From assembly GCA_964565345.1 (NCBI GenBank), contig CAZMEQ010000002.1, positions 7,133 to 71,132 of the forward strand: a DNA stretch of 64,000 nucleotides. The letters are read 5' to 3'. Both the position numbers and the translations under genes were made by a program. Below are positions 13,357-31,266 of the stretch, piece after piece. How positions within the stretch are numbered: position 1 is the first letter of the stretch; every line of letters begins with the position of its first letter. The stretch is from an uncultured Gammaproteobacteria bacterium (GTDB taxonomy: Bacteria; Patescibacteriota; Patescibacteriia; UBA11705; JABHMO01). The notes under the pieces were generated by a model. That model worked only from the letters and a program-made list of their open reading frames with translations, had not been told where the DNA came from and did no database searches.

Positions 13357-13384
13357 ATCTTTTAAAAGTTATAAGCGAGATAAG

Positions 13385-13450
13385 CGAGATAAGCCTCAAT
13401 TCTTAATTTGCTTATCCACTTACTTACTTAACTAGCTTACTTTTTCGTTT
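13385..13450. repeat. Intergenic hairpin element with tandem 9-mers (ATAAGCGAG x2-3) and an opposing CTTAC-rich arm. Possibly a diverged relative of the GTAAC elements.
   Basis: ataagcgagataagcgagataagc ... gcttatccacttacttacttaactagcttac between ftsZ and ftsA. Confidence 0.3.
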
Positions 13451-13468
13451 CTCCCTCCCTTTTATATA

Positions 13469-14725: not shown

Positions 14726-14837
14726 ACAATTTTCTGAACAATACAATTGGTCAACAACAGCGCATTGTTAACACTTTCTCTTATTTAATTATAGTATAAA
14801 AAGTTCTAGACTCCAACTATTACTAGTGATAATGCAA

Positions 14838-14870
14838 AAAGGCCTTATTTAAGGTCTTTTTTTATCCTTT
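14838..14870 (-). terminator. Intrinsic terminator-like hairpin downstream of dgkA (end of the long minus-strand operon)
   Basis: aaaaaggccttatttaaggtcttttttt. A GC-containing stem with flanking A-runs and T-runs. Confidence 0.4.
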
Positions 14871-14878: not shown

Positions 14879-15244
14879 TTATGAGTTCAGTTGTAAATAG
14901 GGCAAAAAAATAATTAAACCCAAAACAACAGCCGACAAAGCAGCCACCAAAACCATTCCTGACAGGATGTCTTTTATTTCGCCCACGTAAGGATGCAATC
15001 GTGGCTTGAATAAATCGACTAATCTTTCAAAAACAGTATTCAACATTTCTAAAATAAAAATTAGTGCGATCATCATAATAATAATCGCCCATTGCCAAGC
15101 CCTAATATTAAAATAAAAACTAAAAAATAAAACAAAAAACGCTGCCAAAAGATGCAGTTTAAAATTTTGCTCTTTCTTTATCAACATTTTGAGCCCAGAA
15201 AGCGCATGTTCAAAACTTCTAAATAATCTATTCAACTTAAGCAT
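14879..15244 (-). CDS. dgkA: Diacylglycerol kinase family membrane protein
   Basis: 121 aa with 3 TM helices. ILEMLNTVFERLVDL resembles the DgkA E..LNTAIE..VD core. Confidence 0.6.
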   Translation of the reverse strand: MLKLNRLFRSFEHALSGLKMLIKKEQNFKLHLLAAFFVLFFSFYFNIRAWQWAIIIMMIALIFILEMLNTVFERLVDLFKPRLHPYVGEIKDILSGMVLVAALSAVVLGLIIFLPYLQLNS

Positions 15245-15656
15245 AAAATTTATTTAGGATTTTTTCTTCGAGTCTCTCCATTATAACTGCTTCTGTATTT
15301 TTGATGTGATCATAACCAGATAAATGGAGATAACCATGGAGCACAAGACGCAAGATCTCTTTTTCTAAACTGTGTTTTAATTCTCTAGCTTGTTTTTGCG
15401 CCCGCAGAGAACAAATAATTATCTCACCTAGCAGAGCATCTTGTGTGTTATCTTCAAAAGAAAGCACGTCTGTAACAGCAGCCTTATGCCGATACATATC
15501 ATTCATTCTTTTGATACTCGCTGGCACTACAAAAGCTAATGAGACCTGCTTATGACCTTTTTGGAGTATTGTTTTTTGGGCCAGATTTAAAATAGCGCTT
15601 ATCTTTTTTTGCGGAACACGAATTGCCGTTAAATTATTAATTTCGACCGATACCAT
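15237..15656 (-). CDS. ybeY: rRNA maturation endoribonuclease YbeY
   Basis: HGYLHLSGYDH metal-binding motif (HGxLHLxGYDH). Confidence 0.85.
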   Translation of the reverse strand: MVSVEINNLTAIRVPQKKISAILNLAQKTILQKGHKQVSLAFVVPASIKRMNDMYRHKAAVTDVLSFEDNTQDALLGEIIICSLRAQKQARELKHSLEKEILRLVLHGYLHLSGYDHIKNTEAVIMERLEEKILNKFYA

Positions 15657-15666: not shown

Positions 15667-17154
15667 CTAAGGGCGGATTAGCTGAGCTAATTCTCCGGTA
15701 CAGGTATCTGTTCGACTTATAGCGGTTTCAAAATTCTGTTCTGGATTATAAGTGCACTTCATAATTTTTCCAGCCCAGGCTGCCTCTGGATGTTTGGTAA
15801 AACGGGCAGAATAAACGCAATTACCTCCCTCCCTACCTCCGACACTGATTTCGTATGTAAGATTGTCAGCGAGCTTAAAAATCCCAATTACTGGTTCACA
15901 AGTTTCAAAAGAATCATAGAAGCAGGCTGTATTACCACAGGGGAATTCTGTAACAACCTTTTTATTATCAACCAAAACAGGAACCCCCAAAGACTCCATA
16001 ATACCCGCAAAATTGACGGCTGGAGCAGTGGCAACTGGCTCTATAACACCAAACTCAAAGCTATTTACCATCATAGCAAAAAGACCAGGGTAATTGGCTT
16101 CTTCATTCAATCCGATATTATAATTAATAATATAGACTCTAGTTCCATTAGCAACATAGGCAGTAAAACCATCAGGGCTTTCAATTACAGCGTTTTTCTT
16201 ATAGTTTTGGTATTTCTTTAGCTGAGTTGCGCTAATGCTTGGTGCTCTTTCTAAATACCAAGCATCCAATGTTTGTTCGGCTGGTTTTGTATCTACAAAA
16301 ATGTTTACGAACTCATTGCCCTTTGAGGTAAACATAACCTCTTTGGGATCATTTTCTTTTAAAGGACTAGCTAACCAAGTTGAGGGATATAACAATTTAT
16401 AACCATAGCTAGTATTCTCGTATGCTTTTGCAAAACCCTCTTCGTTTATTCTAGTACTACCGGCCTTAATTGGGCTGTAAAAATTTTTCATCTCATCGCC
16501 ATCGCGGTAAGTATCTTTGTCTGTGTCATTCATGTTTGGATCCGTACCGATCAATGCCTCCTCGGCATCAGTTAGCCCATCTTTATCTTTATCTAGGCTG
16601 GCCATTAAAGATAATGAAACATCACTTAATTTACTTGGATCAAAATTAATTTTTTCTTCGACTGCTGGTTGTTCCGTGGGAATGTCAACTGGTGGTGGGG
16701 TGTTCTCGTCCGGCTGAGCTGCCTCCTCTGTGGCAGGCTCTTCGACAACAGGCTGTTCTTCAACTACGGCCACCTGGTCTTCAACATTAACGTTTTGATT
16801 ATTGGCTGGTGCTTGATAGCTGGCATATAACAAGTAAGCCGAAATACCAACGACCAAAACTAAGACCACAATAATGGCGATGTTCATGATCTTTTTTTTG
16901 CCAGCTGGCGCACCTGAAGTTTGATAGGCCGGCGCCGTTGGTGCGGCTGACTGCATCACTGCTGGTTGTGGCCCTTTGGGGATATTAGCTGTTTTCCCGC
17001 CAGTATAATAGTCCATCGGCATAGTATGAATTTCTTCTGACCCAGACGTGGCTGTTGGCGCAGTTGGTGCGGGTGGCGCCACATTGGGAGTAGTCTGGGG
17101 CGCTGGGGTTGGTTGTACTGGTGGTGCTGATTGTGTATTTACATCATCAAACAT
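15667..17154 (-). CDS. Hypothetical exported protein, Pro/Thr/Ala-rich N-terminal region, with one DxDxDG calcium-binding motif
   Basis: 495 aa. Low-complexity PAPQTTPNVAPPAPTAP region, then a TM helix (IAIIVVLVLVVGISAYLL). DKDKDGLTDAEE. Confidence 0.5.
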   Translation of the reverse strand: MFDDVNTQSAPPVQPTPAPQTTPNVAPPAPTAPTATSGSEEIHTMPMDYYTGGKTANIPKGPQPAVMQSAAPTAPAYQTSGAPAGKKKIMNIAIIVVLVLVVGISAYLLYASYQAPANNQNVNVEDQVAVVEEQPVVEEPATEEAAQPDENTPPPVDIPTEQPAVEEKINFDPSKLSDVSLSLMASLDKDKDGLTDAEEALIGTDPNMNDTDKDTYRDGDEMKNFYSPIKAGSTRINEEGFAKAYENTSYGYKLLYPSTWLASPLKENDPKEVMFTSKGNEFVNIFVDTKPAEQTLDAWYLERAPSISATQLKKYQNYKKNAVIESPDGFTAYVANGTRVYIINYNIGLNEEANYPGLFAMMVNSFEFGVIEPVATAPAVNFAGIMESLGVPVLVDNKKVVTEFPCGNTACFYDSFETCEPVIGIFKLADNLTYEISVGGREGGNCVYSARFTKHPEAAWAGKIMKCTYNPEQNFETAISRTDTCTGELAQLIRP

Positions 17155-17165: not shown

Positions 17166-17753
17166 TTATTGATTTGTATTTAATTGTTGCAAAGCCTCTT
17201 CGAAATTAAGCAACTTCCCCGCCCCACGTGGGTTATAACCAGCCTTCACTTCTTCTCCATCTAAAAAACCATCACCGTCTGAATCAGAAGCAAGTGGATC
17301 GGTTAAAAAATTCTTAACTTCGTCATAATCAGATAAACCATCATTATCTGTATCGCTCTTGTTGGGGTTAGTTTGTAAGATAATTTCCTCTTCCCGAGGC
17401 AAACCATCATTATCATAATCATCAACAGTCTCGATGCGTGGAGCGACAAAAACCTCTTGTTCTGGAACCACCACGGCTTCTTCCACCTCAATTTGAGTTA
17501 TTATGTCGGGCACAACTTCTTGTTTTTGGAATAGCCCAAACTGTTTAATCATAATAAAAATTACTCCACACAATATGGCTACCATTAAAAACAAACCAAG
17601 GCCGATAAATATTTTTTTGTTACTGCTAGGTGGAGTAGAATTCGTTGGAATCGTTCCTAGCGCTGGATTATTGTACATTAAATTACCCGGCACATTCTTG
17701 GGTGCTTTGTCGACTGCTTGAAAAATATCTTCGATTTGGTTATCGGTAGGCAT
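17166..17753 (-). CDS. Hypothetical membrane-anchored protein with three thrombospondin-type-3-like DxDxDG repeats
   Basis: TM helix (IFIGLGLFLMVAILCGVIFIMI). DYDNDGLPREEE, DTDNDGLSDYDE and DSDGDGFLDGEE. Confidence 0.5.
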   Translation of the reverse strand: MPTDNQIEDIFQAVDKAPKNVPGNLMYNNPALGTIPTNSTPPSSNKKIFIGLGLFLMVAILCGVIFIMIKQFGLFQKQEVVPDIITQIEVEEAVVVPEQEVFVAPRIETVDDYDNDGLPREEEIILQTNPNKSDTDNDGLSDYDEVKNFLTDPLASDSDGDGFLDGEEVKAGYNPRGAGKLLNFEEALQQLNTNQ

Positions 17754-17754: not shown

Positions 17755-20700
17755 TTAGTAATTTAACTCATCTTCATCTGGTGGTGGAGGCGGTGGAAGC
17801 GTAGTGAACTTAGACATTAAATTCTTGAGCTTTGTTTCTAGTTCTGCTGTACTCCCCTGCATCCAAATTCCTTGATGATTTATATCATTTATACAAACAG
17901 AAGGTTCCGTGGTTGGCGCAATACAAACATTATTAACACAAGCATTAGAACAACTTGTTGAACTTACACAAGAAGCGCAATCAGTATTCGCCGTACACGC
18001 CTGTCCAGCACACAGGCCATGGTAACGATACCAAAAGTTAAAATTACTGACTCCTAACGCGCCTGTTTTAATATAAATAAAGTGTATCGGTATTCCTCTT
18101 GCATTAGCAGCTGTAATTGTCGCCGCTCTACTTTCGGGATTATAGGTATCATCAGCATCAGTGATAACAATGTAAACAGTTTGATCATAATCGACAGACG
18201 CTCCTGCTTTTGTCATCTTAGTATCATACACATTTAATGCATCCATAAAAACATTATCTATTCTCAAGGCCATATACGCATTCCCATCATAGATGTAAGG
18301 TGAACTACACACTGGGGCAGCACCACTACAAGTTCCCGAAGAACAAACGTTAGAAGAACATTGGTTGGCTTGTGTACAATAATTATACACACATCTTCCC
18401 GCCCCACCACAATTATAAGTTGCGTTACATGTTGCTATGTCTTGCGTTTTAACGCAGTTCTCCCAACCATTTGCACAATCCAACCAACCCAAGAAATGGT
18501 CAGCCTGACCGGCAGGAAAATATGCCCTTCTGGCATCTTCCGTCGGACTAGTTTTTGATGTCCCCAAGACGAAATAGGCATTATTGCCCATAACGTCACG
18601 GATTCCATCAATATGTGTGCAACCTGGGGCACCAGGAATACAACCAGCCGGAGTATCTATTCCATTAACAATTGAAAGAATTAAATCTTGATGAGCCATT
18701 TCTGGATCATGATCTTGCCATCTCATACTGCCGCTCGTATCAACAAAAAAGGCAAAAAGAACTTTTTTAGTTTCTTTATCATCATACTCACTTGAACAAG
18801 CTTTGTCACAAGTTGCCTCATTTGAACCATCTAGTTTACAGTAATCAATGTCGCCATCGCCGTCGTTATCCTGTCCGTCATTACATTGAGCTGGATAAAC
18901 CTCTGACTTGTGTGTCGACTTTTGTACACCATTCTCTTGGCAGCTATAATCTTTTTCTAACCAATTTACTGGCTGACCAGCGGCTTTATCGGCCAAGCAC
19001 TGTTGTTTTGTTTTCCCAATACCATTAATACAACAACCATCCCAATCACAACGCCCATCACCGTCATTATCAAGTCCATCTTTACAGTGATAAGGGTAAT
19101 CTTCTGTTTCGTCGCTAGAACTCGAGCAACCTTCATCATTTGGATAGTCGATTTTGCCATTTTTATCATTATCAATTCCATCCATACACTCGGGAGCGTC
19201 ACCTGGAGTCTCTGGAATTTCTTCTGGATCCTGCTTTATAGCATCCCAACCCACATTTGAAGTTTCTATGAGTGGAACATATTTATAATTTAACTGTGGT
19301 TGTTCGTAATAAACGCGTAACCGGTATTTAGTATAATCAAGATCATTTACTTCGTAAGTATAGGTTAAATTCTTCCCATAATCTTTATCAGTCTTATCCA
19401 ATATGGAATAATATCCATACAATGAATCGAATGTTTGAGTAGAACTGTTATAACAAGCTCTATTATCATAAACATTAGAACATTCAACACAGGACATCCC
19501 CGGAATAGCACATTGTTCGTCCGAACCACAGGCCAACGGATTAGAATAAACATCGGTACCGCATAAAACTGGCTTTGAAATATTATCACAAATACAATTA
19601 GTTTCTTGCTCCTGGCAGGCCGTTGTGGTTCCACTCAAGAAGCACTGTGGCTGTGGTGGGACATTATACAAAGCATTAATTGGATCTACCGGCATGTCGA
19701 AACCAATAGCCTTGGACAACTCATTTTTCCAGGAATCCCAAACGCTGTTGGAGAAGTGTCGTTGGAGAGTTCCAGATTCAAGTTGTGGCACATAACCGTT
19801 ATTTTGGGCTTTATAAACTTTTAGATATTCGTGCATCAACACAAAATCTTGTAAACGCTTTGTATCTCTAATTACCTTAAGTTTGTTAACATTTTCAGCA
19901 TTCAAAACATTCATGTTGAATTTTAAGAACTCAACCATTTGCCCAAAGATGTTTTGTGTGGCCGGATTAGAATTTTGTGAATAACTTAGAAGATAAATGT
20001 TGTTGTAAACATTGTTACCATTAACATTCGCGGCTGAAACATAAATTGTTCGTCCATCTTGAGTCCCGGCATAACAAAATTCACCAAAGCTGTCATACAA
20101 ACAATCGGATTTAGTTTCGGGCACAGAAGCCGCTGGATTTGGTGCGTACCGCTTATACCACAAACTCGGTGGCAACGCTTCTGGATTTTCGTATATGCGC
20201 AATGAGATTGCGTCTGGCACCATGTCGTTAGTACTCGGATAGTCCATATCATCCTTGCGGACAAAGAAATATTGGGCAAACAAAGCGGGGCTTTCCCACC
20301 CATCATTTGCCGAGGTGCATTTATGATCTTTAGTATCAATTAACCCGTTGCCATCATCGTCAACACCATTGCTACATTGATTTTCGACGTCGACATTCAA
20401 TTCTTGCCAACCTGAATTATCGCCATAGAAAATGCCTTTTTGTTTGGCGATATCTGTTATATTGTGGTGTTTAAATTTGAAACTTCCGCCATCTGGCAAA
20501 CATTGTGAAGTTATATTTACACAAGTACAACCTGGTTGATTCTTAACACAAGAAACCGGAGTACAATATTCAGCCGAATAATCAGCTGTACACTTGAAGG
20601 CGCCAATACCGTTGTTGGAATTAGTATCAGTATTAAAGGTCCAAGCAACGGCGAGACCTGTTTCTTCGTCAGTCTTTATAGCACTTGGTGTTTTTTCCCC

Positions 20701-23700
20701 ATGGAAAACTCTAAAATCATCAACATAACCACCAAAAGAGACTAAAGGAACGGTTGTTTTGCCTAAGCCACCAACATAGAGTTTGTCGTACATGCTAGGG
20801 GTGGCTATCACATCTAGCTTTTCGCTAGTACAAACGCAACCCGGAGTTCCACTATCGCAAATTGTTCCACCAGCTGTTTTACAATCTAAATTATCCCGTG
20901 GCCAAACAAACATAGACGCTGTTTCTTGCTCTGAAACATCTGCTTTTCCGTTAATCGATAAAATGGCGGATTTAGAATCCTTATTATAAGACAAAACTAT
21001 CTGATTAAAACCATTATTTAATAAACCAGCAGCATCGCGAATACCGCGATAAATAATGTTATTGCCATATTTAATCTTAAAGACAACTGATCGCTTAATA
21101 TTTTCGTCAGTACAGTTACAGGCAGACGGCTGTTTAGAGCCGTTTAACACCTCAAACCAACAAACTGGATCAACCGGCGTAGCACACCAACGACGCACAC
21201 CCAACTGAACATGATCTTGATTTGGGACAGAGGCTATATCTGTTGATAAATTTTTATAAAATAGACGGACATATCTGTCTTGTGGTAAATCATCGTTATA
21301 AACCCAAGCTGAAATGGTCCAAGATTCTTTGGCTGTTTCGCTAGCGCCGTCTCTATTTAAGAAGTCTAAGTTATCATTAGCGCCAGACACGACATAATCA
21401 TAATTACGATCAAAATAAACACCAAAGCGTGGTTTAGGATCAATCTCCGTGAACTCACCAGACATCAAACCAACAAGAGGTAAATCGTCGCTTAAAATTT
21501 TATCTTCACCAAAATCACGACAATAGAATAAACCAGCATTGAATTCTTTTTCAACTAAATAGCTTGGTTTTAATTGGCCATTGTTGGTTGTTTCAAGTCG
21601 TAAGTCAAATTTTTTACGAGTGGGTTGCCCGTCGACATATTGATACTCAGCCGGGATAGCCCGTCCATAACTATTATAAACATCGCCAAACCACGGGTTG
21701 TCGCAAATAAAGACTTTTATATTACCAAAGCCCGTAAACTTTGCACCTATCTGATTAAAATTCCCTTGGTCTTTTGCGCAAACACATGTTGCCCCACCAG
21801 CAACACATGGAGCACCAGTATCTTCATCAGTGCACAGTTGAGCGACAGAATCTTCGGTGATTGTTGCCGTAGCTTTAATTTGTCCCTGACCATTTTTAGT
21901 TTGAGTTGTAATAACGGCAGCATAAGCATTTGGATTTATTGTAGCAAGGGCTGTGTCTGTTGATTCCCAAGCCCAATTCCAACTATAAACACCTGGGACA
22001 GGGAAAATATTTTGTGCGCCACTACGTGGATAAGCATAATAGTTAAACTCTTGCTTTGACTGCATAACAAACAAATCACCAGGAGTTACAGCCACATTAT
22101 CTAAACGGCAGAGCTCAGATCCAGTGGTGAATGTGATTTTTTTAGGTAAATCAGTAAAACCAACATTACATTTATTCTTTAAATTTCTGAATAAAATTTT
22201 ATAGGTTGTATTAGGCAAAAGAAGTTCCGCCGGGATCCCCCTCATTTCGGTCCCATTACCAGTCACCTTTATATCGCTTGTCATTTCTGGACCACGGCAA
22301 TGTTTTAATGGACCAGCTAGACCTATCTTGAAAAGTAAATTTCTAACAAATTCAATAACCTTGTTATATGTTTTAACGAACCAGTTTTTACTAGAATTAG
22401 ATACAAACTCGTCGATTTCCCCAGATGATAATTCCCCATTGGCGCAAACTTCAGCATCATAGTAAAACAACATGCCACTCTTGCGTTCGCAGCCAACAAC
22501 CTTTGTTGCCCCGTCGCACTTGCTCATATCTGCCTTTCCGTCTGGCATGAGCTGTTCGCCTCCATCGGTACAAATACAACTGTCGCCGCCCTTTATCTCT
22601 CCCTTTACCGTTGAATATAAAACTATAATTGAATTACGACAAACATCCTGAGCACCGTTCGATGGCACCGAATACGAACTCCCTCCAAACAACTCGGTTT
22701 CAGCGGAACAAGAAGCAGTTACGGCCTCGTCATACACTGATTTAGGAACACGCAAAGCAATGTCCGTGTCCCCAGTCTTAGTTTGTGGCTGACCTTGAAT
22801 AGTTTCTAAAGTTTGAGCAATAATTTTTTTAGTCAAACTATAAGTCACTGGTGGTTTGTCAGGATTTTTAGAATCAATATCTGGCGTTAATCTTAATAAA
22901 ACGCTATAAACATTGAAGGTATTTTTTTCGGTATTAATAGTTGCTTGTTGATATGGGCTCCCCTTAGTACCTGTCCCCAAAGCCTCACAACCACTGTCTT
23001 CTCCTAATTCCTTAAGGCCATTACCACACAAAGAACCATATTCACTATCTGAACCTATGTTAGTACATTTATTGGTACACCAAGCTGGAAATTCGCAAAC
23101 ACAACCTGCTTCACCCACAGCACAAGCTTGTTGCATTTTGCCACCGGCAGGACAAGCTGTTACTTCGGCGCAAAAGCATTGGTTCCCCACTTTAGTACAA
23201 CCAGAATCCCCCGAATCACACTTAGCCATATTCTGAACCTGCGTTGGACATGTTACCTCTTTGAAACAGGCCGTTTTTTCACATTCCTCCATACTTAAAC
23301 CCGCACCCGTTAAGTCCTCAACAATGCTATTGCCACAGCAATTATTTTCGCCCGGATTAACGCAAGATGGAAAACCAGTTATCAAACATTTTTCATTACA
23401 TAAAGGATTGGCTGAATCGCATTCCTCGCCAGCATCGACAGTCCCATTACCGCAAATAGGAAGACCAGCTACAAATTTAACCTGAGCGCCCTCATTTAAA
23501 CATTTATTGTTTACCCCATCACCGGCTTTATTGTTGCCATCATCAACGTCTTCCCCTGGTTCTGGGACTTTATTCCCACAAGTATAGCCATCGGCTGTAC
23601 CAGTGTTCAAACAACCAGCTGAACAAGCTTTACTCTTAGATACCAAGACACAATTATCTTCGGGCTCTGCTGTGGTTGGGTCACATGCCTCTTTATCTTT

Positions 23701-26700
23701 ATCTAAATATTCTGCACCCAAATCACACTCTTCGTTACCATTTTTAACACCATTGCCACAGCAAGCTGAACTTCCAGACAATTCAGCGGGCGTGCAAGCC
23801 GCAAAATTATCCCAGAGACAAGTTTCAATGTTACAATTGGCGATTGGTGGCTCACACTCTTCGCCAGTTGAAATTGTTCCATCACCGCAAACAGCTCTAT
23901 ATTTTACACTTCCTTTCAACAAACAATTACTATTACAAGTTGTAGAAACCTGAGTATTATAAACATTATTAGTTATGGTCGCGAGTGGGGCTCCATCAGT
24001 TGCGCCATTATCGGGGTCATTTGTAGACCAGTCCCAGTCATAGTTGAGTGGGTTTAATAATTGGCCATTGGGCGAACACTTGTCTGGGGCACTGGCTGGT
24101 TGCACTGCGTAATTTATGGTCTCGCCTGGAACGCCAGCCACATAACCACCAGGAGTTACGCCAACTGAGTTAATGACGCACTGGTTAGGATCATTTTTTG
24201 TTTTAAAGACCCAGCTAAAACTATTAAATGCTGCCCCGGGGATAACACCCGTTGGATCATGGTGATAATTTAAGTCAATTAATTTTACCCCACTAATACT
24301 TTCCATATCTCCAGAAATTACAACGCGGTGGTAACGATTAGGCAACAAATTCATGTTATTTACCAAATCGATTGTTAACAAATTTTGACCGAAAGAAACG
24401 CCAGCAGCCGGCGCATACAAATAATTTAAATTCAAGGTAACACCAGGCAAAGCAGAAATTACGGTACACTCTTCAGTATCACAACTATAAACTTTTACAT
24501 TGTTTTGATTTTCCACCACAGACTCCTTCATCTTGGTGTTAAAGTTAACCCCCATTTGAGCGTTAATACAGGCTTCTTTACACTTTGGATAATAACTTGT
24601 AACACGTGGTTCACTAAAATTAATTTCTAAATCAGCTCCCTTCTCGTATAATAAGCTATCAGCTGGCACCACGGCGTTAGCCAATATCTGGACTAAATTA
24701 CTTTCGGTTGTTTCTAAATCAATAGTCGCATTACATTCACACCCCTCACTAAATTGAGAACAACCGCCAGGTTGGCAAACCAACTTATCCGTACGTGTAG
24801 CATAAACGCCAATGTCATTACGTCTTTCGGTTGCAGCTGTACAATATGGCAAAGCACCAGGAATCGGCTCAACTAAGCAGGCATAACCCTTAGCCTCGGC
24901 TTTTTGCGCATCTGCTGCATCTGGAACTGTCCAAACCCACGGCTTATCAATTAAACTTATTTCTTGACACTGGTACATGCCAGTAACCCAGTATTTTTGA
25001 ATTTGTTGTACTGAAGTTATTTTACCTTTAGAAGGCGTCATTAAAAAATTATCAGGGACACAGTCAGTGGCTTTAGTTTTAAAATTCCAAACATAGCTTT
25101 GCGTCATAGTTTTACCTGGAACACCTGGTGCAAAACTATTTGCCGCCACACCACCTGGGCCGCCAACTATTTCTACTTGATACCAAGAATTTGCAAATAA
25201 ATTATACTTATTGCCTGATTTTTGAATTATATTTGGATAGGCATTAGTTCCAGGAGCGCCACCACCAGCATAGCTGGCAAACAAAGAAAATGAAGTCATG
25301 TTTTCATTAGAAGCGGCACAAACACACCCCTCTGTTCCAGGCTCACACTTAGCGCCCAACTTTGTACAAACAATACTGGCCGGCTGAGTACCGACATCAC
25401 TGGGAGCGATATTAGATAATTGACTGGAAAGACAATTAGGTGCGGTACAAGCAGTAAAGTCACAAGGAGTCTCGCTATCCGAAGCAAGACAACGTCGAAT
25501 AATAACATTGCCATTCAAGCTTGCTTCGTTAATTAACATGTTAAAGGTTGCTGAAATCAACCCATTAGGACAAGCTAATTTATCCTCTTTTTTAGGCGAA
25601 GGCGATTGTCTATAACCAGCATCAGTAGCAAAATCAGTCACAAAACAATTTCGTTCAATAACAGCTGGAATTTTAGGGATTACTCCAGTACTCATAACCC
25701 AAGCATACTCAGACTCATGGGTTACAATAGTAGAGCCACAAACATCTTCTTTGGTTGTTTTCGTTCCTTTGTTTGTACAAACTCCATTAGAACAACAAAA
25801 TTGATCGGCCTTACAAGATTCGTCATTTTTACAAGCACCAACCTTAAATTCAATAGCATTGCTTGCAACTGAACAATCTCCTCCCTCCAAACGAACACCG
25901 CCCGTAATTGCCTCGGCCGGAACGCGTGCCTTTTCTATAGTTTCAGCGCCCCAAACAATATCCCCCGCTTCATTAACCGGAATACGGTTGTCCTTATCTT
26001 TTACAAAAGTTAAATTATATAAATCTTTAGTGCCAAAATTTTCACCTGTGACTGTAAATTCTGTAGCAGCCGGTCCATTGCTTGGAGATAAACCGCACAA
26101 ACCCGGACCCGGAGCATTAGTGTTTACCACAAAGAAACGGTTATTACTTGGTAAACTCTGGCTTGTAATAACCTGGACCCAATAATTACCAGGACTTAAA
26201 CTCATGGCCTGATCGCCCTGTAACTTATTTGCTTCGGGCACCTTAACTATAATCTCGGTATCAGACCAGCTTCCAGCACCACAAGCAAAATCAGCAATAA
26301 AAGCAGGCAAAGGATTTCCATCCTCATCAGTTGCCTCTACAAATCCACCCTCGCCATTGTCCTCCAAAAGTTTTAAAATTACTTGACCCTGGGCGTCGCC
26401 AAAATTACTGCCAGCAATACTGATCATTTGTTTTACCGGAGCACTTTCTACACAAGTACAATCTGGTGACCCCACGATACAACAACTGTCATCAGCCTTT
26501 TTGCATGTTTTTGGCGTAATTTCAGTGATCGTAGGTAGTGCTCCTGGGTTTCTTACCGTAAAAGAAACAGGATTACTCAAAACATTAAAACAACTACACC
26601 CTGGAGAGCCTTGCTCACAACTTTCAATACAAGATTCAGCGCCAGATTCACAACCGTCTTTAACTTTGGAACAACGCTCCCCCTTACCAACAACAACATC

Positions 26701-29097
26701 GTAAATACCTTTATCTATTTGTGGGACACGAGCCCCCTCTATCTTTGTATCAGACCATAAAATAGTAACAGCTGCTTCTGTATCACCAAAATAAACAGCA
26801 TCGTCTTCTGCTTTTAACTGCCCATCTGGAGGATTACCAAATTTTTCACCCGACAACTGAACCAAAGTCCCGGCGACACCGTCCGAAGGCACCAAAGGAG
26901 CGCACAACCCTGGATAACGTAAAATTGGGTTGCGCACAAAATCTCCCTGCCAACCTTCGTCATCATCTTCGGTATCATCGAATCTATTATTGCCTTCGTT
27001 ATCTTTATTTTTCGTAACAACCTTAATTGGACCTGTTCCTACACCTTCCGGGACTTTGACTATAATTTGATTATTAGTCCAAGCACCAGCAGAGTCACAA
27101 CCTAGTTCTGCAGGTAGAGTGTATTTTTGTCCTGCCTCAACACCCTCACTAAACAAAACTCGACTTTCATTAATATCATAAGAAGAAAATCCATTCCCAT
27201 ATATAGTCACAAAATTACCGTCAATGCCCTCTTTCGGATTCGCGTTATAAATTATCGGCAAAGACTTACAAACACCTGTTGTTTCACCTTCTTTAATTTC
27301 ACAATAACCATTGGCACAATCTGAATCCTGCGTACAAGGGCCCTCATCACATGCCCCACAAGCGGGATCACCACAAATTATTTCGCCAGCGTCGTCGCAA
27401 CAAAAATCTGGTCTTAAATAAACGTTTGTTTTCTTATTACTGCTATTACCATCAACATCATTCGCTTCTAGCATTAACCAATGTTCACCTAAAGCATACT
27501 TTTGTTTTCCGCCAGCATCCAAAACGTTAACTTCCCATGGCAACGAACCTGAATATATAAGAGGTGTTGAAGGCAAAGAAACTTCTCCTATTGCATCTTC
27601 CTGCCCAGTTACGTGATCAACATATAAAGAAATAAGTGCCAACCCAGCGTCATCTTCGGCTCCAAAAGGAATGTCCCTTGAATCTATGCTTTCCTCAGGG
27701 AATTTACACATGCTCTTATTAAGAGCATTAAAATATACTTTGGGTGGAGTAACATCGCATACATCCCCAGTAGTAAACTTTGCCGTACAAACACTGTCAG
27801 TGGCATTACAAATTAAAGGATCGCCATCAGCTGACGTTAAACCAGTGGCCCCCGCCTTTATGGTAATGGTATATTCAGTATCTTTTTTTAAGGCATATTT
27901 AGAAGAGTCAGCCTGGTCACACACTCCAGCTGGAACAAATTCCACTAACCGCCCACTATTTTTGACTACAAAAGTGCCGTCGACTGTACTAGGTACAGAC
28001 TCGACTATATCTAACCACATGTAATCAAACTTTAAACAGTTAGTGCCAGTACGTGCCCATTTAATATAAATCTTATCTCCGCCCAAACACGCAGCATCTA
28101 AATCGATTTCATTATTACCATTAGGCGGCAACCAATTTTCTTTTATTTTAACTAAGTCTGCTTCTGTTTTACCGCAAAAAATATCCATGGTGGCCTGATC
28201 GCCGGAAGATGAACTTTCGAATTTTAATTTACCTGATTTTTCTGTCGTAATTCCACTCACATCGTATTCAACCAACATCGGGGTTTCACCCAAATACGTA
28301 GCGCTACATATTACCCAATTAGGGTTAATTGTTCCATCATCTTCTTTTATTTGCGCTAAAATTTGGGCTCCATTACCTAGCACCTCCGTGACCTTAACTG
28401 GCTTAACTGTTATATTTTGATCGACCGTTTCTGCACTGCCAGATATTATAATATTGTTTTTTAATATTTCAGGAGTAGAAACAACCGCCTGGTTAAAAGA
28501 AATTCGCGGATGAACATTGATAATTTTTTGTTGGCCCACGGGAACTATTGCCTTTACCCTCAAATACGCCTCGCCATAAATATCAAGACCAGAATATTCT
28601 GTATAATGGGTGGCCGAAGTACAACCGGCATCTCCGGGAAAATCAATTGTGCCATCTTTATCATTGTCTTTACCATCAGAACAAGCATAATAATATGTGT
28701 CATCGGTCACTGCCCCTTGTAACTTACTTATGACAAATGAAACTATCGCATATGATAATAAGATAATGGCTAAACCAATGGCCGCATTGATTAAGTATTT
28801 TTTAGCTTTATCAACCTTGTCTGCTTCACCACCCGAAGTCATGTATAAATAGCCCCCATAAAGGGTTAAACAAAGAGCAATAACTCCCAAAAAACCTAAA
28901 ATTACTTTTATAATCTTTCCAATAACAACTTTTAAATCCGCCTTTTGTAAGCCAGCGCCCGATGCACCCGCAACAGTATCTAACCCAGCAGTAATATCAT
29001 CGTTAGCTAAGACAGAGGCACCAAGCGAAAAACAAAAACTCAAAACAATAAAGAAAGCGACAACAAAAATTAAATTACGAAAAAACTTTTTAGACAT
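17755..29097 (-). CDS. Giant (3780 aa) Cys-rich cell-surface protein. N-terminal signal followed by a pilin-like two-helix hydrophobic hairpin. Also Myxococcus-type Cys-rich CGNG..GEECD repeats, Cys-flanked DxDxDG calcium-binding repeats, a LamG/ConA-like segment and a C-terminal vWA (MIDAS DTSGS) domain.
   Basis: Single uninterrupted ORF. N-terminus ...VIGKIIKVILGFLGVIALCLTLYGGYLYMTSGGEADKVDKAKKYLINAAIGLAIILLSYAIV. Repeats CGDGTISTGEECE, CGNGVKNGNEECD and CGNGTVDAGEECD. CKDGLDNDGDGRCDWDGC. FAFFVDTSGSMRW. Ends in PPPPPPDEDELNY. Confidence 0.8.
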   Translation of the reverse strand: MSKKFFRNLIFVVAFFIVLSFCFSLGASVLANDDITAGLDTVAGASGAGLQKADLKVVIGKIIKVILGFLGVIALCLTLYGGYLYMTSGGEADKVDKAKKYLINAAIGLAIILLSYAIVSFVISKLQGAVTDDTYYYACSDGKDNDKDGTIDFPGDAGCTSATHYTEYSGLDIYGEAYLRVKAIVPVGQQKIINVHPRISFNQAVVSTPEILKNNIIISGSAETVDQNITVKPVKVTEVLGNGAQILAQIKEDDGTINPNWVICSATYLGETPMLVEYDVSGITTEKSGKLKFESSSSGDQATMDIFCGKTEADLVKIKENWLPPNGNNEIDLDAACLGGDKIYIKWARTGTNCLKFDYMWLDIVESVPSTVDGTFVVKNSGRLVEFVPAGVCDQADSSKYALKKDTEYTITIKAGATGLTSADGDPLICNATDSVCTAKFTTGDVCDVTPPKVYFNALNKSMCKFPEESIDSRDIPFGAEDDAGLALISLYVDHVTGQEDAIGEVSLPSTPLIYSGSLPWEVNVLDAGGKQKYALGEHWLMLEANDVDGNSSNKKTNVYLRPDFCCDDAGEIICGDPACGACDEGPCTQDSDCANGYCEIKEGETTGVCKSLPIIYNANPKEGIDGNFVTIYGNGFSSYDINESRVLFSEGVEAGQKYTLPAELGCDSAGAWTNNQIIVKVPEGVGTGPIKVVTKNKDNEGNNRFDDTEDDDEGWQGDFVRNPILRYPGLCAPLVPSDGVAGTLVQLSGEKFGNPPDGQLKAEDDAVYFGDTEAAVTILWSDTKIEGARVPQIDKGIYDVVVGKGERCSKVKDGCESGAESCIESCEQGSPGCSCFNVLSNPVSFTVRNPGALPTITEITPKTCKKADDSCCIVGSPDCTCVESAPVKQMISIAGSNFGDAQGQVILKLLEDNGEGGFVEATDEDGNPLPAFIADFACGAGSWSDTEIIVKVPEANKLQGDQAMSLSPGNYWVQVITSQSLPSNNRFFVVNTNAPGPGLCGLSPSNGPAATEFTVTGENFGTKDLYNLTFVKDKDNRIPVNEAGDIVWGAETIEKARVPAEAITGGVRLEGGDCSVASNAIEFKVGACKNDESCKADQFCCSNGVCTNKGTKTTKEDVCGSTIVTHESEYAWVMSTGVIPKIPAVIERNCFVTDFATDAGYRQSPSPKKEDKLACPNGLISATFNMLINEASLNGNVIIRRCLASDSETPCDFTACTAPNCLSSQLSNIAPSDVGTQPASIVCTKLGAKCEPGTEGCVCAASNENMTSFSLFASYAGGGAPGTNAYPNIIQKSGNKYNLFANSWYQVEIVGGPGGVAANSFAPGVPGKTMTQSYVWNFKTKATDCVPDNFLMTPSKGKITSVQQIQKYWVTGMYQCQEISLIDKPWVWTVPDAADAQKAEAKGYACLVEPIPGALPYCTAATERRNDIGVYATRTDKLVCQPGGCSQFSEGCECNATIDLETTESNLVQILANAVVPADSLLYEKGADLEINFSEPRVTSYYPKCKEACINAQMGVNFNTKMKESVVENQNNVKVYSCDTEECTVISALPGVTLNLNYLYAPAAGVSFGQNLLTIDLVNNMNLLPNRYHRVVISGDMESISGVKLIDLNYHHDPTGVIPGAAFNSFSWVFKTKNDPNQCVINSVGVTPGGYVAGVPGETINYAVQPASAPDKCSPNGQLLNPLNYDWDWSTNDPDNGATDGAPLATITNNVYNTQVSTTCNSNCLLKGSVKYRAVCGDGTISTGEECEPPIANCNIETCLWDNFAACTPAELSGSSACCGNGVKNGNEECDLGAEYLDKDKEACDPTTAEPEDNCVLVSKSKACSAGCLNTGTADGYTCGNKVPEPGEDVDDGNNKAGDGVNNKCLNEGAQVKFVAGLPICGNGTVDAGEECDSANPLCNEKCLITGFPSCVNPGENNCCGNSIVEDLTGAGLSMEECEKTACFKEVTCPTQVQNMAKCDSGDSGCTKVGNQCFCAEVTACPAGGKMQQACAVGEAGCVCEFPAWCTNKCTNIGSDSEYGSLCGNGLKELGEDSGCEALGTGTKGSPYQQATINTEKNTFNVYSVLLRLTPDIDSKNPDKPPVTYSLTKKIIAQTLETIQGQPQTKTGDTDIALRVPKSVYDEAVTASCSAETELFGGSSYSVPSNGAQDVCRNSIIVLYSTVKGEIKGGDSCICTDGGEQLMPDGKADMSKCDGATKVVGCERKSGMLFYYDAEVCANGELSSGEIDEFVSNSSKNWFVKTYNKVIEFVRNLLFKIGLAGPLKHCRGPEMTSDIKVTGNGTEMRGIPAELLLPNTTYKILFRNLKNKCNVGFTDLPKKITFTTGSELCRLDNVAVTPGDLFVMQSKQEFNYYAYPRSGAQNIFPVPGVYSWNWAWESTDTALATINPNAYAAVITTQTKNGQGQIKATATITEDSVAQLCTDEDTGAPCVAGGATCVCAKDQGNFNQIGAKFTGFGNIKVFICDNPWFGDVYNSYGRAIPAEYQYVDGQPTRKKFDLRLETTNNGQLKPSYLVEKEFNAGLFYCRDFGEDKILSDDLPLVGLMSGEFTEIDPKPRFGVYFDRNYDYVVSGANDNLDFLNRDGASETAKESWTISAWVYNDDLPQDRYVRLFYKNLSTDIASVPNQDHVQLGVRRWCATPVDPVCWFEVLNGSKQPSACNCTDENIKRSVVFKIKYGNNIIYRGIRDAAGLLNNGFNQIVLSYNKDSKSAILSINGKADVSEQETASMFVWPRDNLDCKTAGGTICDSGTPGCVCTSEKLDVIATPSMYDKLYVGGLGKTTVPLVSFGGYVDDFRVFHGEKTPSAIKTDEETGLAVAWTFNTDTNSNNGIGAFKCTADYSAEYCTPVSCVKNQPGCTCVNITSQCLPDGGSFKFKHHNITDIAKQKGIFYGDNSGWQELNVDVENQCSNGVDDDGNGLIDTKDHKCTSANDGWESPALFAQYFFVRKDDMDYPSTNDMVPDAISLRIYENPEALPPSLWYKRYAPNPAASVPETKSDCLYDSFGEFCYAGTQDGRTIYVSAANVNGNNVYNNIYLLSYSQNSNPATQNIFGQMVEFLKFNMNVLNAENVNKLKVIRDTKRLQDFVLMHEYLKVYKAQNNGYVPQLESGTLQRHFSNSVWDSWKNELSKAIGFDMPVDPINALYNVPPQPQCFLSGTTTACQEQETNCICDNISKPVLCGTDVYSNPLACGSDEQCAIPGMSCVECSNVYDNRACYNSSTQTFDSLYGYYSILDKTDKDYGKNLTYTYEVNDLDYTKYRLRVYYEQPQLNYKYVPLIETSNVGWDAIKQDPEEIPETPGDAPECMDGIDNDKNGKIDYPNDEGCSSSSDETEDYPYHCKDGLDNDGDGRCDWDGCCINGIGKTKQQCLADKAAGQPVNWLEKDYSCQENGVQKSTHKSEVYPAQCNDGQDNDGDGDIDYCKLDGSNEATCDKACSSEYDDKETKKVLFAFFVDTSGSMRWQDHDPEMAHQDLILSIVNGIDTPAGCIPGAPGCTHIDGIRDVMGNNAYFVLGTSKTSPTEDARRAYFPAGQADHFLGWLDCANGWENCVKTQDIATCNATYNCGGAGRCVYNYCTQANQCSSNVCSSGTCSGAAPVCSSPYIYDGNAYMALRIDNVFMDALNVYDTKMTKAGASVDYDQTVYIVITDADDTYNPESRAATITAANARGIPIHFIYIKTGALGVSNFNFWYRYHGLCAGQACTANTDCASCVSSTSCSNACVNNVCIAPTTEPSVCINDINHQGIWMQGSTAELETKLKNLMSKFTTLPPPPPPDEDELNY
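22980..23920 (-). repeat. Block of Myxococcus-type cysteine-rich repeats (CGNGxxExGEECD) inside the giant protein
   Basis: At least five units, CGNGLKELGEDSGCE, CGNSIVEDL...MEECE, CGNGTVDAGEECD, CGNGVKNGNEECD and CGDGTISTGEECE, located from the reverse complement of the nucleotide sequence. Confidence 0.6.
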
Positions 29098-29112
29098 TAT
29101 AAAAAATTATTT

Positions 29113-31266
29113 TTATCTTTCGATATTGCTCAAAACACATTCATTTAGATCTTCGGGGCTGGCTGGATTTATCCGAGTCGGCTTATAATCACCCTCCGAT
29201 GGACAACAGGAAACACCATAAGTTTCAGCTGTAATATCATCACCATCCGTATCAGTGCAGTCTAAATTGCTTTCATTCTGAACAGTTGATGTTTTTTGAG
29301 CATCTAAATTTCGGCTCGGCGTAAAACAATTTTGGCGCATATCACGGACTTGCGCCTTAATAACAGGCATATAAACTGGACCATCTGGAAGAGGTTCTCC
29401 CGGAGCCGGCTCTGGTACCTTGGCAAAAAGACCATGAGCCATATTTATCGTATTCATTAACGTACTTGGTGGGGCCGGAATTTCTAAATTCGGATCAAAC
29501 CAACTGCTGTAATTTTGACCATAAAGATAGACTTCGGTATCAACCGTAGCTGGATCTAACCCTTCATTAAAAATAGCTCTAATAGGAACATCAATCTCAA
29601 CATTTTCTGAAACATTTTTAGGTATTAATTCAACAATAGCTGGTGGAGTTAAATCTATGGCACTTCCCACACCAAAAGACCAGTCATCATAATTATCATC
29701 GGGCTGACCATCCGCCTTTCCATCATTATTACCATCAAGCGCATTACCCGCTAAATCAGCAATACCAGTTCCCAGTAAAGCGATTTCAGCCTCTTCATCA
29801 ATTTCGGCAGACTTAACCAATCCTTCTAAAATCTTATCAGCTGGTAAACAAAAAGCTTTTTCTCCGCAACTGTTTTCTTCTACCCCCTCACACTCCATTG
29901 AAGATATAAATTGAATTGTTCGGTATTGATTAATCCCGGTTAACCATTTACCAGGGACATACGAAGTAGTACAAGTCCCCACTTTTTCACCTGCGGCTAA
30001 TTTTAACTGCGCCTCGTTCACATCGCTTGTCGCATTACAAGCTGTTTGGTCTGTTCCGCCCAATAAAGGTAAAACTGGCTCATTAAAATTAACAACCACT
30101 ATTTGATTACGGAAAACTTTTGGCACAGCGCAATCGGCGTCCACACCAGGAGTACACAAGCTACTATCTGTTACTTTATCATCAATTCCAGCTTGATTAA
30201 CAGGAATAACGGAGACTATTTTCGGCGGTGTCAGATCAACGGCTGTACTGGTAGTGAAGCGCCAATAATAATCCCGAGGGTTGCTAAAAACAGACATCCC
30301 TGCCGGAGATAAACGCTTTATGCCATTGGCTCCACTCAACATATGAACCACGTAAGTTACGTTTTCTTCTGAACTTCCCAAATAATTAGACGAGCCAACC
30401 CCATTACCATAGGGATTAAAAACAACGGAACGTCTATCCTCTGTTATTAAAACAAAACCAGGAACAATGTCTTCAAAGTTCTCTGGGTCACTAATTTGTG
30501 CGTTTAAACAATCCGAGGGTGGAGTTCCATCTGGCCAATCAGGCATTTTATCGCAACGATATAACTTAAACGTATTCTTATTAATTGGACCACAAACAGA
30601 CGAATCGGCTGGACAGTCATCATTGGTACATTTAGTAATCGCTTCTGGACAACCTGTATAAGCCGAACTTGAGTCCATATCAATAAAAGATTTTTCTTCA
30701 ATTGGCATTTTAAATGTAACCACGACCATGGTATTGCGTGGTACGCCGGTTTGCTCCGGATATGGTGAATGCCCCGACAGAATTTCACCAAAAGCATTAC
30801 CCGAAAGACTATAACCCAAACCCTTGGGAATAGTAGAAGTAATAGTATAAGTACCGGTATCCTTATTTAGTAGGGCATTTAAAATAAAGGAAACAATCGA
30901 ATAGGCCGCAAAAATGATGATTAAACCAATGGTCGCATTAGTCATCCACTGTTTGGCCGTTTGCACCTTGGTCGGATCGCCTCCAGAAGTCATATAAACA
31001 TAGCCAGCGTAGAGGATAATAACAAAGAAAACGATCCCCAAGATACCAAGGAAAACCTTAATAATTTTCCCTATGGTTAAACGGATATCGCTCTTTACCA
31101 AACCAGCTTGAGTCCCAACTGTGTCCAACCCCTCCATAGCATCATCGGCCGCGGCCTGAACCGGTGAACTTAAAACTGGCATAAATAAAATAACTGCCAA
31201 CATAAACAACAAACAACTGGCAGTTATCCAAAAAATAAACTGATTTTGATTTTTTTTGACAAGCAT
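29113..31266 (-). CDS. Large (717 aa) exported Cys-containing protein. Its N-terminus is paralogous to that of the giant protein (signal plus pilin-like hairpin).
   Basis: ...TIGKIIKVFLGILGIVFFVIILYAGYVYMTSGGDPTKVQTAKQWMTNATIGLIIIFAAYSIVSF closely parallels the giant-protein N-terminus. Also GLDTV in both. DGNNDGKADGQPDDNYDDW. Confidence 0.7.
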   Translation of the reverse strand: MLVKKNQNQFIFWITASCLLFMLAVILFMPVLSSPVQAAADDAMEGLDTVGTQAGLVKSDIRLTIGKIIKVFLGILGIVFFVIILYAGYVYMTSGGDPTKVQTAKQWMTNATIGLIIIFAAYSIVSFILNALLNKDTGTYTITSTIPKGLGYSLSGNAFGEILSGHSPYPEQTGVPRNTMVVVTFKMPIEEKSFIDMDSSSAYTGCPEAITKCTNDDCPADSSVCGPINKNTFKLYRCDKMPDWPDGTPPSDCLNAQISDPENFEDIVPGFVLITEDRRSVVFNPYGNGVGSSNYLGSSEENVTYVVHMLSGANGIKRLSPAGMSVFSNPRDYYWRFTTSTAVDLTPPKIVSVIPVNQAGIDDKVTDSSLCTPGVDADCAVPKVFRNQIVVVNFNEPVLPLLGGTDQTACNATSDVNEAQLKLAAGEKVGTCTTSYVPGKWLTGINQYRTIQFISSMECEGVEENSCGEKAFCLPADKILEGLVKSAEIDEEAEIALLGTGIADLAGNALDGNNDGKADGQPDDNYDDWSFGVGSAIDLTPPAIVELIPKNVSENVEIDVPIRAIFNEGLDPATVDTEVYLYGQNYSSWFDPNLEIPAPPSTLMNTINMAHGLFAKVPEPAPGEPLPDGPVYMPVIKAQVRDMRQNCFTPSRNLDAQKTSTVQNESNLDCTDTDGDDITAETYGVSCCPSEGDYKPTRINPASPEDLNECVLSNIER

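Follow-up and report, generated by a model that had tools for sequence, protein, structure and literature searches.

A giant Patescibacteria surface protein and its shorter neighbour share a pilin-like hairpin and occupy a conserved locus that may encode an adhesive fibre pair

Here we describe two adjacent genes, encoding a 3,780-residue protein (G) and a 717-residue protein (U), in a stretch of 64,000 nt of contig CAZMEQ010000002.1 (assembly GCA_964565345.1), referred to below as the window. Both proteins begin with a signal peptide and a VirB2/TrbC-type two-helix hairpin, and throughout a whole class of Patescibacteria the U–G unit keeps one place and one gene order. On balance, and judging from sequence, we favour a model whereby U and G form a hairpin-anchored adhesive fibre pair, stabilised by Ca2+ and disulfides, of the ABY1-type Patescibacteria (Falkowbacteria and allies). 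The two open reading frames (ORFs) and the parts of G are as follows, in window positions.

29113..31266, minus strand: U, surface protein of 717 residues, with signal peptide at residues 1-38, hairpin at residues 46-135 and Ig-like Big_5/BIg domains at residues ~160-717
17755..29097, minus strand: G, giant surface protein of 3,780 residues (ORF including the stop codon)
29005..29097, minus strand: G signal peptide, residues 1-31 (hydrophobic segment 3-33; cleavage site inferred from sequence, between SVLA and NDD)
28702..28956, minus strand: G hairpin of the VirB2/TrbC type with two helices, residues 48-132, paralogous to that of U (PF18895, 26.7-29.2 bits)
28621..28683, minus strand: single-copy acidic loop, residues 139-159
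27262..27408, minus strand: Cys-rich knot, residues 564-612, just before the IPT/TIG region
25828..27261, minus strand: IPT/TIG Ig-like region, residues ~613-1090 (PF01833, 38.0 and 43.9 bits in two segments, five stretches)
22978..23889, minus strand: Myxococcus-type Cys-rich acidic repeats, CG[ND]G...GEEC[DE], residues ~1737-2040 (TIGR02232 and motifs)
20698..21420, minus strand: LamG/ConA-like lectin-fold domain, residues ~2560-2800 (PF13385 and orthologues)
20317..20376, minus strand: single-copy acidic loop, residues 2908-2927
19348..20280, minus strand: "domain X", residues 2940-3250, its N-terminal half with a PsbP/Mog1/DUF1795-like fold
18796..19188, minus strand: three tandem acidic double-disulfide loops of Ca2+-binding type, CxDGxDNDxDGxxD, residues 3304-3434 (regular expression)
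17803..18771, minus strand: domain with a metal ion-dependent adhesion site (MIDAS), probably von Willebrand factor A (vWA)-like, residues 3443-3765, with two Cys-rich insertions (invariant D-x-S-x-S...T-D)
17758..17802, minus strand: C-terminal tail of G, LPPPPPPDEDELNY

U lies upstream of G with 15 nt between them, and both frames are uninterrupted; at the local base composition, which predicts one stop per ~15 codons, chance would yield a frame of 3,780 open codons with p ~1e-113. The first-pass annotation of this DNA had described two consecutive giant genes with paralogous N-termini. Its ORF coordinates and lengths are exact, but a protein of 717 residues is not giant; the paralogy holds, the N-termini of U and G being 49% identical over 119 residues (E = 4e-27) with PF18895 in both. 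Hidden frameshifts or stops in G, named there as what would undo the finding, are excluded because intact orthologues of 3,880, 3,896, 3,624 and 3,719 residues come from independent assemblies. By hydropathy, G has exactly three hydrophobic segments (residues 3-33, 54-86 and 100-130) and none in the remaining 3,650 residues, and U has three as well (residues 8-40, 61-96 and 107-135). The ectodomain of G is acidic, with 475 Asp and Glu residues versus 283 Lys and Arg residues, and together with the Sec signal, 182 Cys residues and the domain set described below this bears out the earlier description of a huge, Cys-rich, multidomain surface protein from CPR (candidate phyla radiation)/Patescibacteria.

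The hairpin is a genuine pilin-type module. In both proteins, two hydrophobic helices with a short polar loop between them come after the signal, as in pilins, and the type IV secretion system (T4SS) pilin profile PF18895 reaches its gathering cut-off of 26.6 bits in each (U, 42.7 bits; G, 26.7 bits), so that the signal and pilin-like hairpin recognised at first pass are confirmed by profile scores and hydropathy alike. A hidden Markov model (HMM) built from hairpins of the U family scores 113.8 bits on the G hairpin, while two further profiles stay below their cut-offs (TrbC PF04956 in U, 22.4 versus 27.9 bits; NF045849 on the G hairpin, 30.9 bits). In size and context, the two proteins depart from pilins, which have ~70-120 residues and consist mostly of the hairpin: U and G carry extensions of 582 and 3,650 residues, respectively, and the 64-kb window holds no VirB4- or VirD4-sized gene, all its ORFs of at least 550 residues being accounted for by NrdD, TopA, RelA/SpoT, U, G and a third hairpin protein. 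Exactly two hairpin genes, U and G, are present in 59 of 89 loci, and the hairpin HMM finds a small pilin in only two of the 89. Other modes of surface attachment were also considered. Sortase anchoring is excluded, given that the motif [LIV]Px[TSA]G occurs nowhere in G and that G has no C-terminal hydrophobic segment; repeats-in-toxin (RTX) export through a type I secretion system (T1SS) is excluded by 0 GGxGxD motifs in G, an N-terminal Sec signal and no adjacent transporter gene; and domain scans of U, G and 14 orthologous giants found no S-layer homology (SLH) or other wall-binding domain.

The third hairpin protein of the window (46101-48254, plus strand, 717 residues) has the opposite polarity. 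Its hairpin is C-terminal (residues 649-708; PF18895, 27.5 bits), and its N-terminal part consists of a Sec signal, five TSP1-like repeats of the pattern W[ST]YSxWSxC...RT...P.GC, other Cys-rich modules and a weak Dickkopf_N match; a 720-residue orthologue lies at the same place in Parcubacteria GW2011_GWC2_39_14. VirB2-type pilins have both termini facing outward, and a hairpin that is C-terminal in this protein and N-terminal in U and G fits both ends facing outward and a generic use of the module as an anchor. Two other loci show further arrangements of hairpin genes. In Ga0233431_1000875 (locus L078), a tandem array of ten small hairpin pilin genes (128-223 residues; 8982-13975) replaces the U–G pair. 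In the Uhrbacteria contig MGDT01000003.1 (locus L088, guanine–cytosine (GC) content 63%), a 76-residue T4SS_pilin gene (9626-9856), whose product scores under the threshold of the hairpin HMM, lies between yqeY and U, giving a series of a small, a medium and a giant pilin, and an ORF of at least 1,346 residues lies 3' of the giant.

The domain content of G was determined by scanning it whole and as ten overlapping segments against Pfam and NCBIfam and by scanning the 14 orthologous giants one by one. Across these giants, Big_5 and T4SS_pilin are each matched in 13, Laminin_G_3 (best E = 7e-21) and TIG (best E = 4e-20) in 12, Big_7 in seven, TrbC in three and DUF4215 in two. IPT/TIG is well above its cut-off of 20.9 bits in G, with segments spanning residues 614-1000, and Big_5 is weak in G itself. 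These two Ig-like families (IPT/TIG at 38-44 bits) and the conserved, unannotated domain at residues 2940-3250 had been overlooked in the first-pass annotation, which had named Myxococcus-type repeats, many Cys-flanked DxDxDG loops and a ConA/LamG-like segment. The Myxococcus-type repeats are present, with three CGNG motifs and one GEECD motif, TIGR02232 lying marginally above its cut-off (21.1 versus 20.8 bits, three stretches) and DUF4215 being sub-threshold at 15 bits; nearly all Cys residues of this region are conserved in 11 of 11 sequences. The Cys-flanked loops are real but few rather than many: the motif C-x-DG-x-D[ND]D-x-[DN]G occurs five times, at residues 139, 2908, 3304, 3338 and 3405, and the five matches to the acidic double-disulfide repeat NF033662 (16-30 bits) remain below its cut-off of 41 bits. 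The region of tandem loops matches hundreds of repeat proteins and resembles the Cys-rich motif of Teneurin-4. The ConA/LamG-like segment is sub-threshold in G (PF13385, 21.2 versus 27.6 bits) but is found as Laminin_G_3 in 12 of the 14 orthologues, with a strong match in the 3,896-residue orthologue from JGI, and we accept it as a LamG domain by orthology. A tandem-repeat adhesin was ruled out as a description of G, because BLAST self-comparison revealed no internal repeats.

Domain X includes part of the most conserved stretch of G. Residues ~2881-3060, which run into this domain, are 80% identical to the closest orthologue and ~60% identical to an orthologue that is only 35% identical overall. 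Structural superposition with family members supports a PsbP/Mog1/DUF1795-like fold for its N-terminal half; the idea that the second half might be a type IV pilin head found no support. A HMMER search with residues 2581-3780 of G against 1.84 billion representatives gave 2,748 matches, 81 of them below 1e-30, which fall into three classes: colinear giants, proteins rich in acidic loops, and secreted proteins of 200-1,000 residues carrying domain X. In hundreds of the latter Patescibacteria-type proteins (for example P0161, P0189, P0190 and P0206), domain X follows directly after the Sec signal peptide, and variable adhesin-like modules lie C-terminal to it (Big_9, TSP_3, He_PIG, Myxo repeats, vWA). 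No Pfam family covers domain X in ten small secreted proteins scanned, and a scan of genome contigs with a domain X pattern returned only two loci, the pattern being too narrow. We have in domain X a widespread secreted domain without an entry in the family databases, and it merits a family definition of its own.

Many orthologues of G terminate right after domain X, and the acidic loops and vWA-like domain that follow it in G are a C-terminal addition in its lineage. A vWA domain with FAFFVDTSGSMRW had been proposed for this end. This motif lies at residue 3448, and the MIDAS residues stand in the canonical order D-x-S-x-S...T...D, the D, S and S of VDTSGSM and the T-D of ITDADD being invariant in eight orthologues; G itself gives no profile match, but its orthologues lend indirect support. 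Two of them have sub-threshold Pfam VWA matches (P0078, 20.6 bits, E = 5.6e-4; P0071, 18.8 bits, E = 2e-3; cut-off 23.8 bits) that span profile positions 3-140 of 174, and a distant giant of the family (locus L048) ends in a significant VWA match of 30.3 bits, likewise with a Cys-rich insert. Comparison of a profile of the G C-terminus with two canonical vWA sequences by hhalign was weak, aligning beta1-alpha1-beta2 or beta4 only at a probability of 6-12%, and PDB searches by sequence and by profile, with the C-terminal third of G as query, gave nothing useful. Weighing these data, we regard it as quite probable that the C-terminal domain of G is a vWA domain. The poly-Pro acidic tail described earlier is present as listed above; in all eight orthologues with the vWA-like extension, the final residue after the Pro- and acid-rich tail is aromatic (Y or F).

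The Cys residues of G are better conserved than its other positions: 113 of the 182 are kept in at least 80% of eleven aligned orthologues, versus 19% of non-Cys positions. A ten-residue mini-module, C-x6-C-x-C (CxxGxxGCxC), is present in 10 copies versus 0.40 expected (maximum of 4 in 2,000 shuffles), for example at residues 827-836, 1251-1260, 1992-2001, 2431-2440 and 2747-2756; every orthologue has it, and several of the copies are insertions, specific to a lineage, in loops of otherwise conserved domains. The conservation and the mini-module pattern suggest structural disulfides, and hence that G would be oxidised and extracytoplasmic. For U, an AlphaFold2 model built with 57 homologues has a mean predicted local distance difference test (pLDDT) score of 82 and a predicted TM-score (pTM) of 0.76 and shows the signal helix, two helices at residues 61-93 and 98-134, and beta domains thereafter. 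Big_5 matches U at 35.6 bits, and Foldseek aligns the model with Ig-like domains at E-values of 3e-6 to 1e-5 (LdtMt2 BIg domains, 3e-6; the S-layer protein SbsC, 9e-6); multi-domain superpositions give TM-scores of 0.1-0.3, the level of a generic Ig-like fold. In this model, U resembles a short stalk of Ig-like domains carried by the same type of anchor, without an enzymatic domain.

The U–G unit is embedded in a conserved gene order: signal peptidase I (SPase I), histidyl-tRNA synthetase (HisRS), ribosomal protein S21, YqeY, U, G, two membrane proteins with TSP3 repeats (TSP3a and TSP3b), ybeY, dgkA, ftsA and ftsZ. The part from SPase I to the giant is kept in every genome context examined, and the part from TSP3a to ftsZ is kept downstream in relatives. 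A word-indexed database holds 70 relatives of U, with Parcubacteria GW2011_GWC2_39_14, Falkowbacteria, Uhrbacteria and Magasanikbacteria as named sources; the same kind of search with the C-terminal 1,180 residues of G returned three proteins only, giants being seemingly under-represented there. The following giants were found 3' of U.

3,880 residues: three independent assemblies of one species
3,896 residues: JGI orthologue
3,624 residues: CAZPYM010000004.1 (L004/L007)
at least 1,301 residues: at a contig end
2,327 residues: Uhrbacteria
3,719 residues: Magasanikbacteria

Orthologues of G are colinear with it at 1,600-4,040 residues, including those of loci L001 (53% identity) and L004 (35% identity). 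One metagenome scan yielded 569 relatives of U, and the family also includes more than 20 giants that are representatives of 50% clusters. Among the 79 loci kept, 55 extend for 1.5 kb or more downstream of U and counted as informative; in 50 of these a hairpin opens the next ORF, which in 48 is either complete at 1,625-3,443 residues or truncated by the contig end, and the flanking housekeeping genes recur in 43-54 loci. The domain combination that had been called unusual is therefore the fixed architecture of a large orthologous family, and the relatives come from genomes of Falkowbacteria, Uhrbacteria, Magasanikbacteria and "Parcubacteria GW2011" rather than from the Saccharibacteria-like cells first suggested. 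Identity to the closest named relative falls from 92% for FtsA, 89% for FtsZ and 79% for DgkA to 67% for both YbeY and TSP3b, 59% for TSP3a and ~51% for G, so that G diverges faster than its housekeeping neighbours, as is the case for exposed surface proteins. In public records, the relatives of U and G bear the labels "hypothetical", "pilin" or "IPT/TIG domain-containing". The record CAZPYM010000004.1, titled "uncultured Gammaproteobacteria bacterium", holds the full Patescibacteria-type block including the 3,624-residue giant, and its Gammaproteobacteria label is probably wrong.

In our model, U and G would be exported by Sec and lose their signal peptides, and the VirB2/TrbC-like hairpin would hold each protein in the cytoplasmic membrane, with the short basic loop in the cytoplasm and everything C-terminal of the hairpin outside. 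G would project as an acidic fibre of 3,650 residues, whose stalk of Big_5, IPT/TIG and Cys-rich repeats would be stiffened by disulfides and by Ca2+ bound in the CxDGxDNDxDG loops. The distal third, with LamG, domain X and the terminal vWA-like MIDAS domain, likely contains the ligand-binding modules, which may bind carbohydrate or protein on the surface of a partner or host cell, or matrix. The paralogous hairpins would most likely bring U and G together, with U serving as a base or spacer. An adhesin-like role for G is the best inference from its Ig-like, LamG and probable vWA domains.

Several observations weigh against this model. The hairpins of U and G are homologous to those of polymerising pilins, and treating them as mere anchors is thus an assumption. 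Neither the C-terminus of G as a whole nor a version with the inserts removed matches vWA in Pfam (PF00092 or PF13519) or in NCBIfam, no domain was assigned to ~40% of G (residues ~1100-1700 and ~2050-2550), and the PsbP/Mog1-like fold of domain X tells little about a ligand. Finally, strict vertical conservation, colinearity and a position in a housekeeping and division block are not typical features of host-specific adhesins; the CPR examples in the literature are variable and lack full-length homologues (PMC11809585).

Because G is colinear over its full length and sits inside a housekeeping block, a structural role that is not specific to a host has to be weighed. According to this alternative, U and G would be a core scaffold of the cell envelope, either an S-layer-like coat or a wall-spanning spacer, that serves envelope architecture or division rather than host recognition. 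The near-universal, colinear occurrence of the pair, which in lineages ranging from Falkowbacteria to Uhrbacteria and Magasanikbacteria is fixed between HisRS/S21/YqeY on one side and ybeY/dgkA/ftsA/ftsZ on the other, would suit such a role, as would the resemblance of the Ig-like domains of U to SbsC and the PsbP/DcrB/LpqN-like fold, common among envelope lipoproteins, that domain X and TSP3b may share. However, SLH and wall-binding domains are absent from the domain scans, LamG, MIDAS-type modules and Myxo repeats are what ligand-binding adhesins typically carry, and the C-terminal third is present, absent or rearranged by lineage, which suits adaptation to external ligands; sequence divergence is also far above that of the neighbours. 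We consider a scaffold rather unlikely.

A second alternative takes the hairpin at face value as a polymerising module. U and G would then be minor or tip pilins of a VirB2-type pilus, their hairpins co-polymerising with small VirB2-like pilins whose genes lie elsewhere, such as near virB4, and the giant ectodomain on the fibre or at its tip would be the host-recognition head of the essential T4SS pilus of Patescibacteria. The module is a bona fide PF18895/TrbC-type hairpin, outward-facing termini make both N- and C-terminal fusions sterically possible, both polarities are present in the window, and one Uhrbacteria genome has the 76-residue T4SS_pilin gene directly upstream of U–G. Patescibacteria have VirB2-like pilins, often in tandem arrays, that are essential in Southlakia (PMC12102498, PMC12857230, PMC10633639). 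Against this, there is no VirB4- or VirD4-sized gene within the window, two hairpin genes and no more are the rule (59 of 89 loci, with a small pilin found by the hairpin HMM in two), and an extension of 400 kDa per subunit is incompatible with helical packing, so that such a protein could be a rare subunit at best. We find it doubtful, for both the pilin assignment and the recognition head, that this is how the locus works, and equally doubtful that U and G are the first VirB2-like pilins with very large adhesin ectodomains to be inherited as core genes, seeding, capping or decorating a VirB2-type fibre whose small pilins are encoded elsewhere or, as in Uhrbacteria, directly upstream. If they were, the essential T4SS/pilus system of Patescibacteria would be physically coupled to partner-cell recognition, and domain X could be a docking module that recruits the smaller secreted domain X proteins to the same structure. 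That the U/G region is mis-assembled, frame-shifted or a decaying pseudogene read as one ORF is a negligible concern: only the general caution that giant ORFs of metagenome bins can be chimeric speaks for it, and the chance probability of the frame, uninterrupted orthologous ORFs in at least 20 independent assemblies, and Cys and domain conservation along the entire length of G speak against it.

Returning to the adhesive fibre pair that we favour, the genes 3' of G include two that may belong to it. The neighbours are as follows.

17166..17753, minus strand: TSP3a, 195 residues, single-pass membrane protein with three bacterial TSP3 (DxDxDG) Ca2+-binding repeats (PF18884, 62 bits)
15667..17154, minus strand: TSP3b, 495 residues, single-pass membrane protein with a TSP3 repeat (PF18884, 24.8 bits)
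15237..15656, minus strand: ybeY (PF02130, 118.7 bits)
14879..15244, minus strand: dgkA (PF01219, 108.4 bits)

The small DxDxDG calcium-binding proteins, ybeY and dgkA reported at first pass were thus all recovered, as TSP3_bac proteins of 195 and 495 residues and by PF02130 and PF01219. The start codon of TSP3a is 1 nt past the stop of G, a TSP3a orthologue lies 3' of the giant in 12 metagenome loci and in L006 and L007, and both TSP3 proteins accompany the giant wherever contigs reach. We suggest that TSP3a and TSP3b are likely functional partners of the giant, probably as membrane-anchored, Ca2+-binding accessory proteins. TSP3b contains a weak PsbP-like region at residues 243-352 (PsbP, E = 1.5e-3); hhalign weakly relates it to the PsbP-like half of domain X (E = 3e-3), with a shared pattern ...WY...DG.T.YV...IY.I.YN..., and the two may carry a related module. 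By comparison, ybeY and dgkA are housekeeping genes that end the co-directional array and lie outside the surface apparatus. From yqeY to dgkA, all genes point the same way and are separated by 1-38 nt (1-11 nt for the neighbours 3' of G) apart from one overlap of 8 nt, and a terminator-like palindrome follows dgkA at 14836-14861; promoter and terminator scans were not above shuffled expectation (59 versus 50 and 22 versus 16, respectively). Co-transcription from yqeY to dgkA, and with it the single operon proposed at first pass, is plausible on this arrangement.

Elsewhere in the window, which has 38% GC, three islands have 57-67% GC (48384-50059, plus strand; 52622-53488, minus strand; 62068-63816, plus strand). 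Their genes are protein-coding, with a GC content at third codon positions (GC3) of 0.76-0.89, ordinary amino-acid composition and AT-rich upstream promoter and Shine–Dalgarno regions, and have no Pfam or NCBIfam match. A 344-residue high-GC gene has orthologues at 60-65% identity, among which that of GW2011_GWC2_39_14 is syntenic and also high in GC (57-59%). Because the coding signals are ordinary and the orthologue is syntenic and likewise high in GC, the islands are a conserved, gene-specific GC anomaly at synonymous sites and not a chimera. Two adjacent RelA/SpoT-family paralogues (42981-44657 and 44683-46134, plus strand), each with HD_4, RelA_SpoT and TGS domains, are arranged in the same way in GW2011_GWC2_39_14.

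A large part of bacterial diversity belongs to the Patescibacteria, which apparently live attached to other cells and whose contact molecules are, to our knowledge, known only from Saccharibacteria. Their genomes are typically ~1 Mb, and the U–G unit of ~13.5 kb, roughly 1% of such a genome, is a tractable candidate for cell contact. Because orthologues span the clade, host range can be set against the variable distal modules (LamG, domain X, the vWA-like region and Cys inserts). The hairpin ties U and G to the VirB2-like pilins on which epibiotic growth depends in the one genetically tractable relative.

Several known systems share single features with the U–G pair. The giant, Ca2+-dependent RTX adhesins of diderms such as SiiE, LapA and MpIBP have Ig repeats and distal lectin-like or vWA modules. 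Like SiiE (PMC6272769), LapA and MpIBP, G has a mass of hundreds of kDa, an Ig-like stalk, a proposed Ca2+-dependent rigidity and ligand-type modules near its distal end; unlike them, it has no RTX nonapeptides or T1SS and no long array of near-identical repeats, carries a Sec signal and an N-terminal membrane hairpin anchor, and is Cys-rich with predicted disulfides. The U ectodomain superposes on tandem Ig-like domains like those of SbsC, SbsA-type Big_5 and LdtMt2 BIg, and Big_5 is found in 13 of 14 giants, but unlike these proteins U and G lack an SLH or cell-wall-binding domain and a transpeptidase domain. Giant proteins of Patescibacteria have been reported in Vampirococcus lugosii (membrane proteins of 1,392-4,163 residues, linked to host attachment; PMC8080830) and Patescibacterium danicum (FhaB-type proteins of 4,939-6,025 residues, reported without full-length homologues; PMC11809585). 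G resembles these in being very large, membrane-associated, equipped with adhesion-type domains and encoded by a tiny genome, attachment being presumed for both; whereas they are reported to be fast-shuffling and carry FhaB, DUF2341, integrin or PKD modules, orthologues that are colinear with G over its full length occur in several candidate phyla, and G combines a pilin-type anchor with TIG, Big_5, LamG, Myxo repeats, domain X and the vWA-like region. The U–G locus thus shows that not every giant CPR protein is a fast-shuffling orphan. Genes for VirB2-like pilins of Patescibacteria often stand in tandem, with 2-11 divergent members per array (Quinonero-Coronel et al. 2025, PMC12102498; Wang et al. 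2023, PMC10633639). U and G share with Patescibacteria VirB2/TrbC pilins the signal and two helices with a short basic loop, a PF18895 score at or above the cut-off, the arrangement as two divergent tandem paralogues and an abundance of the hairpin module that is specific to Patescibacteria. In contrast to known pilins, which have ~70-170 residues and are mostly encoded near virB4, they carry ectodomains of 582 and 3,650 residues, and in contrast to the variable pilin arrays, the two-gene unit is vertically conserved within a housekeeping block with no T4SS gene within 64 kb. In our literature searches, we found no report of a giant ectodomain joined to a VirB2-type hairpin, nor of the conserved U–G locus. 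Both components, giant surface proteins and VirB2-like pilins, have precedents in CPR bacteria, and their fusion in a vertically inherited core locus is new.

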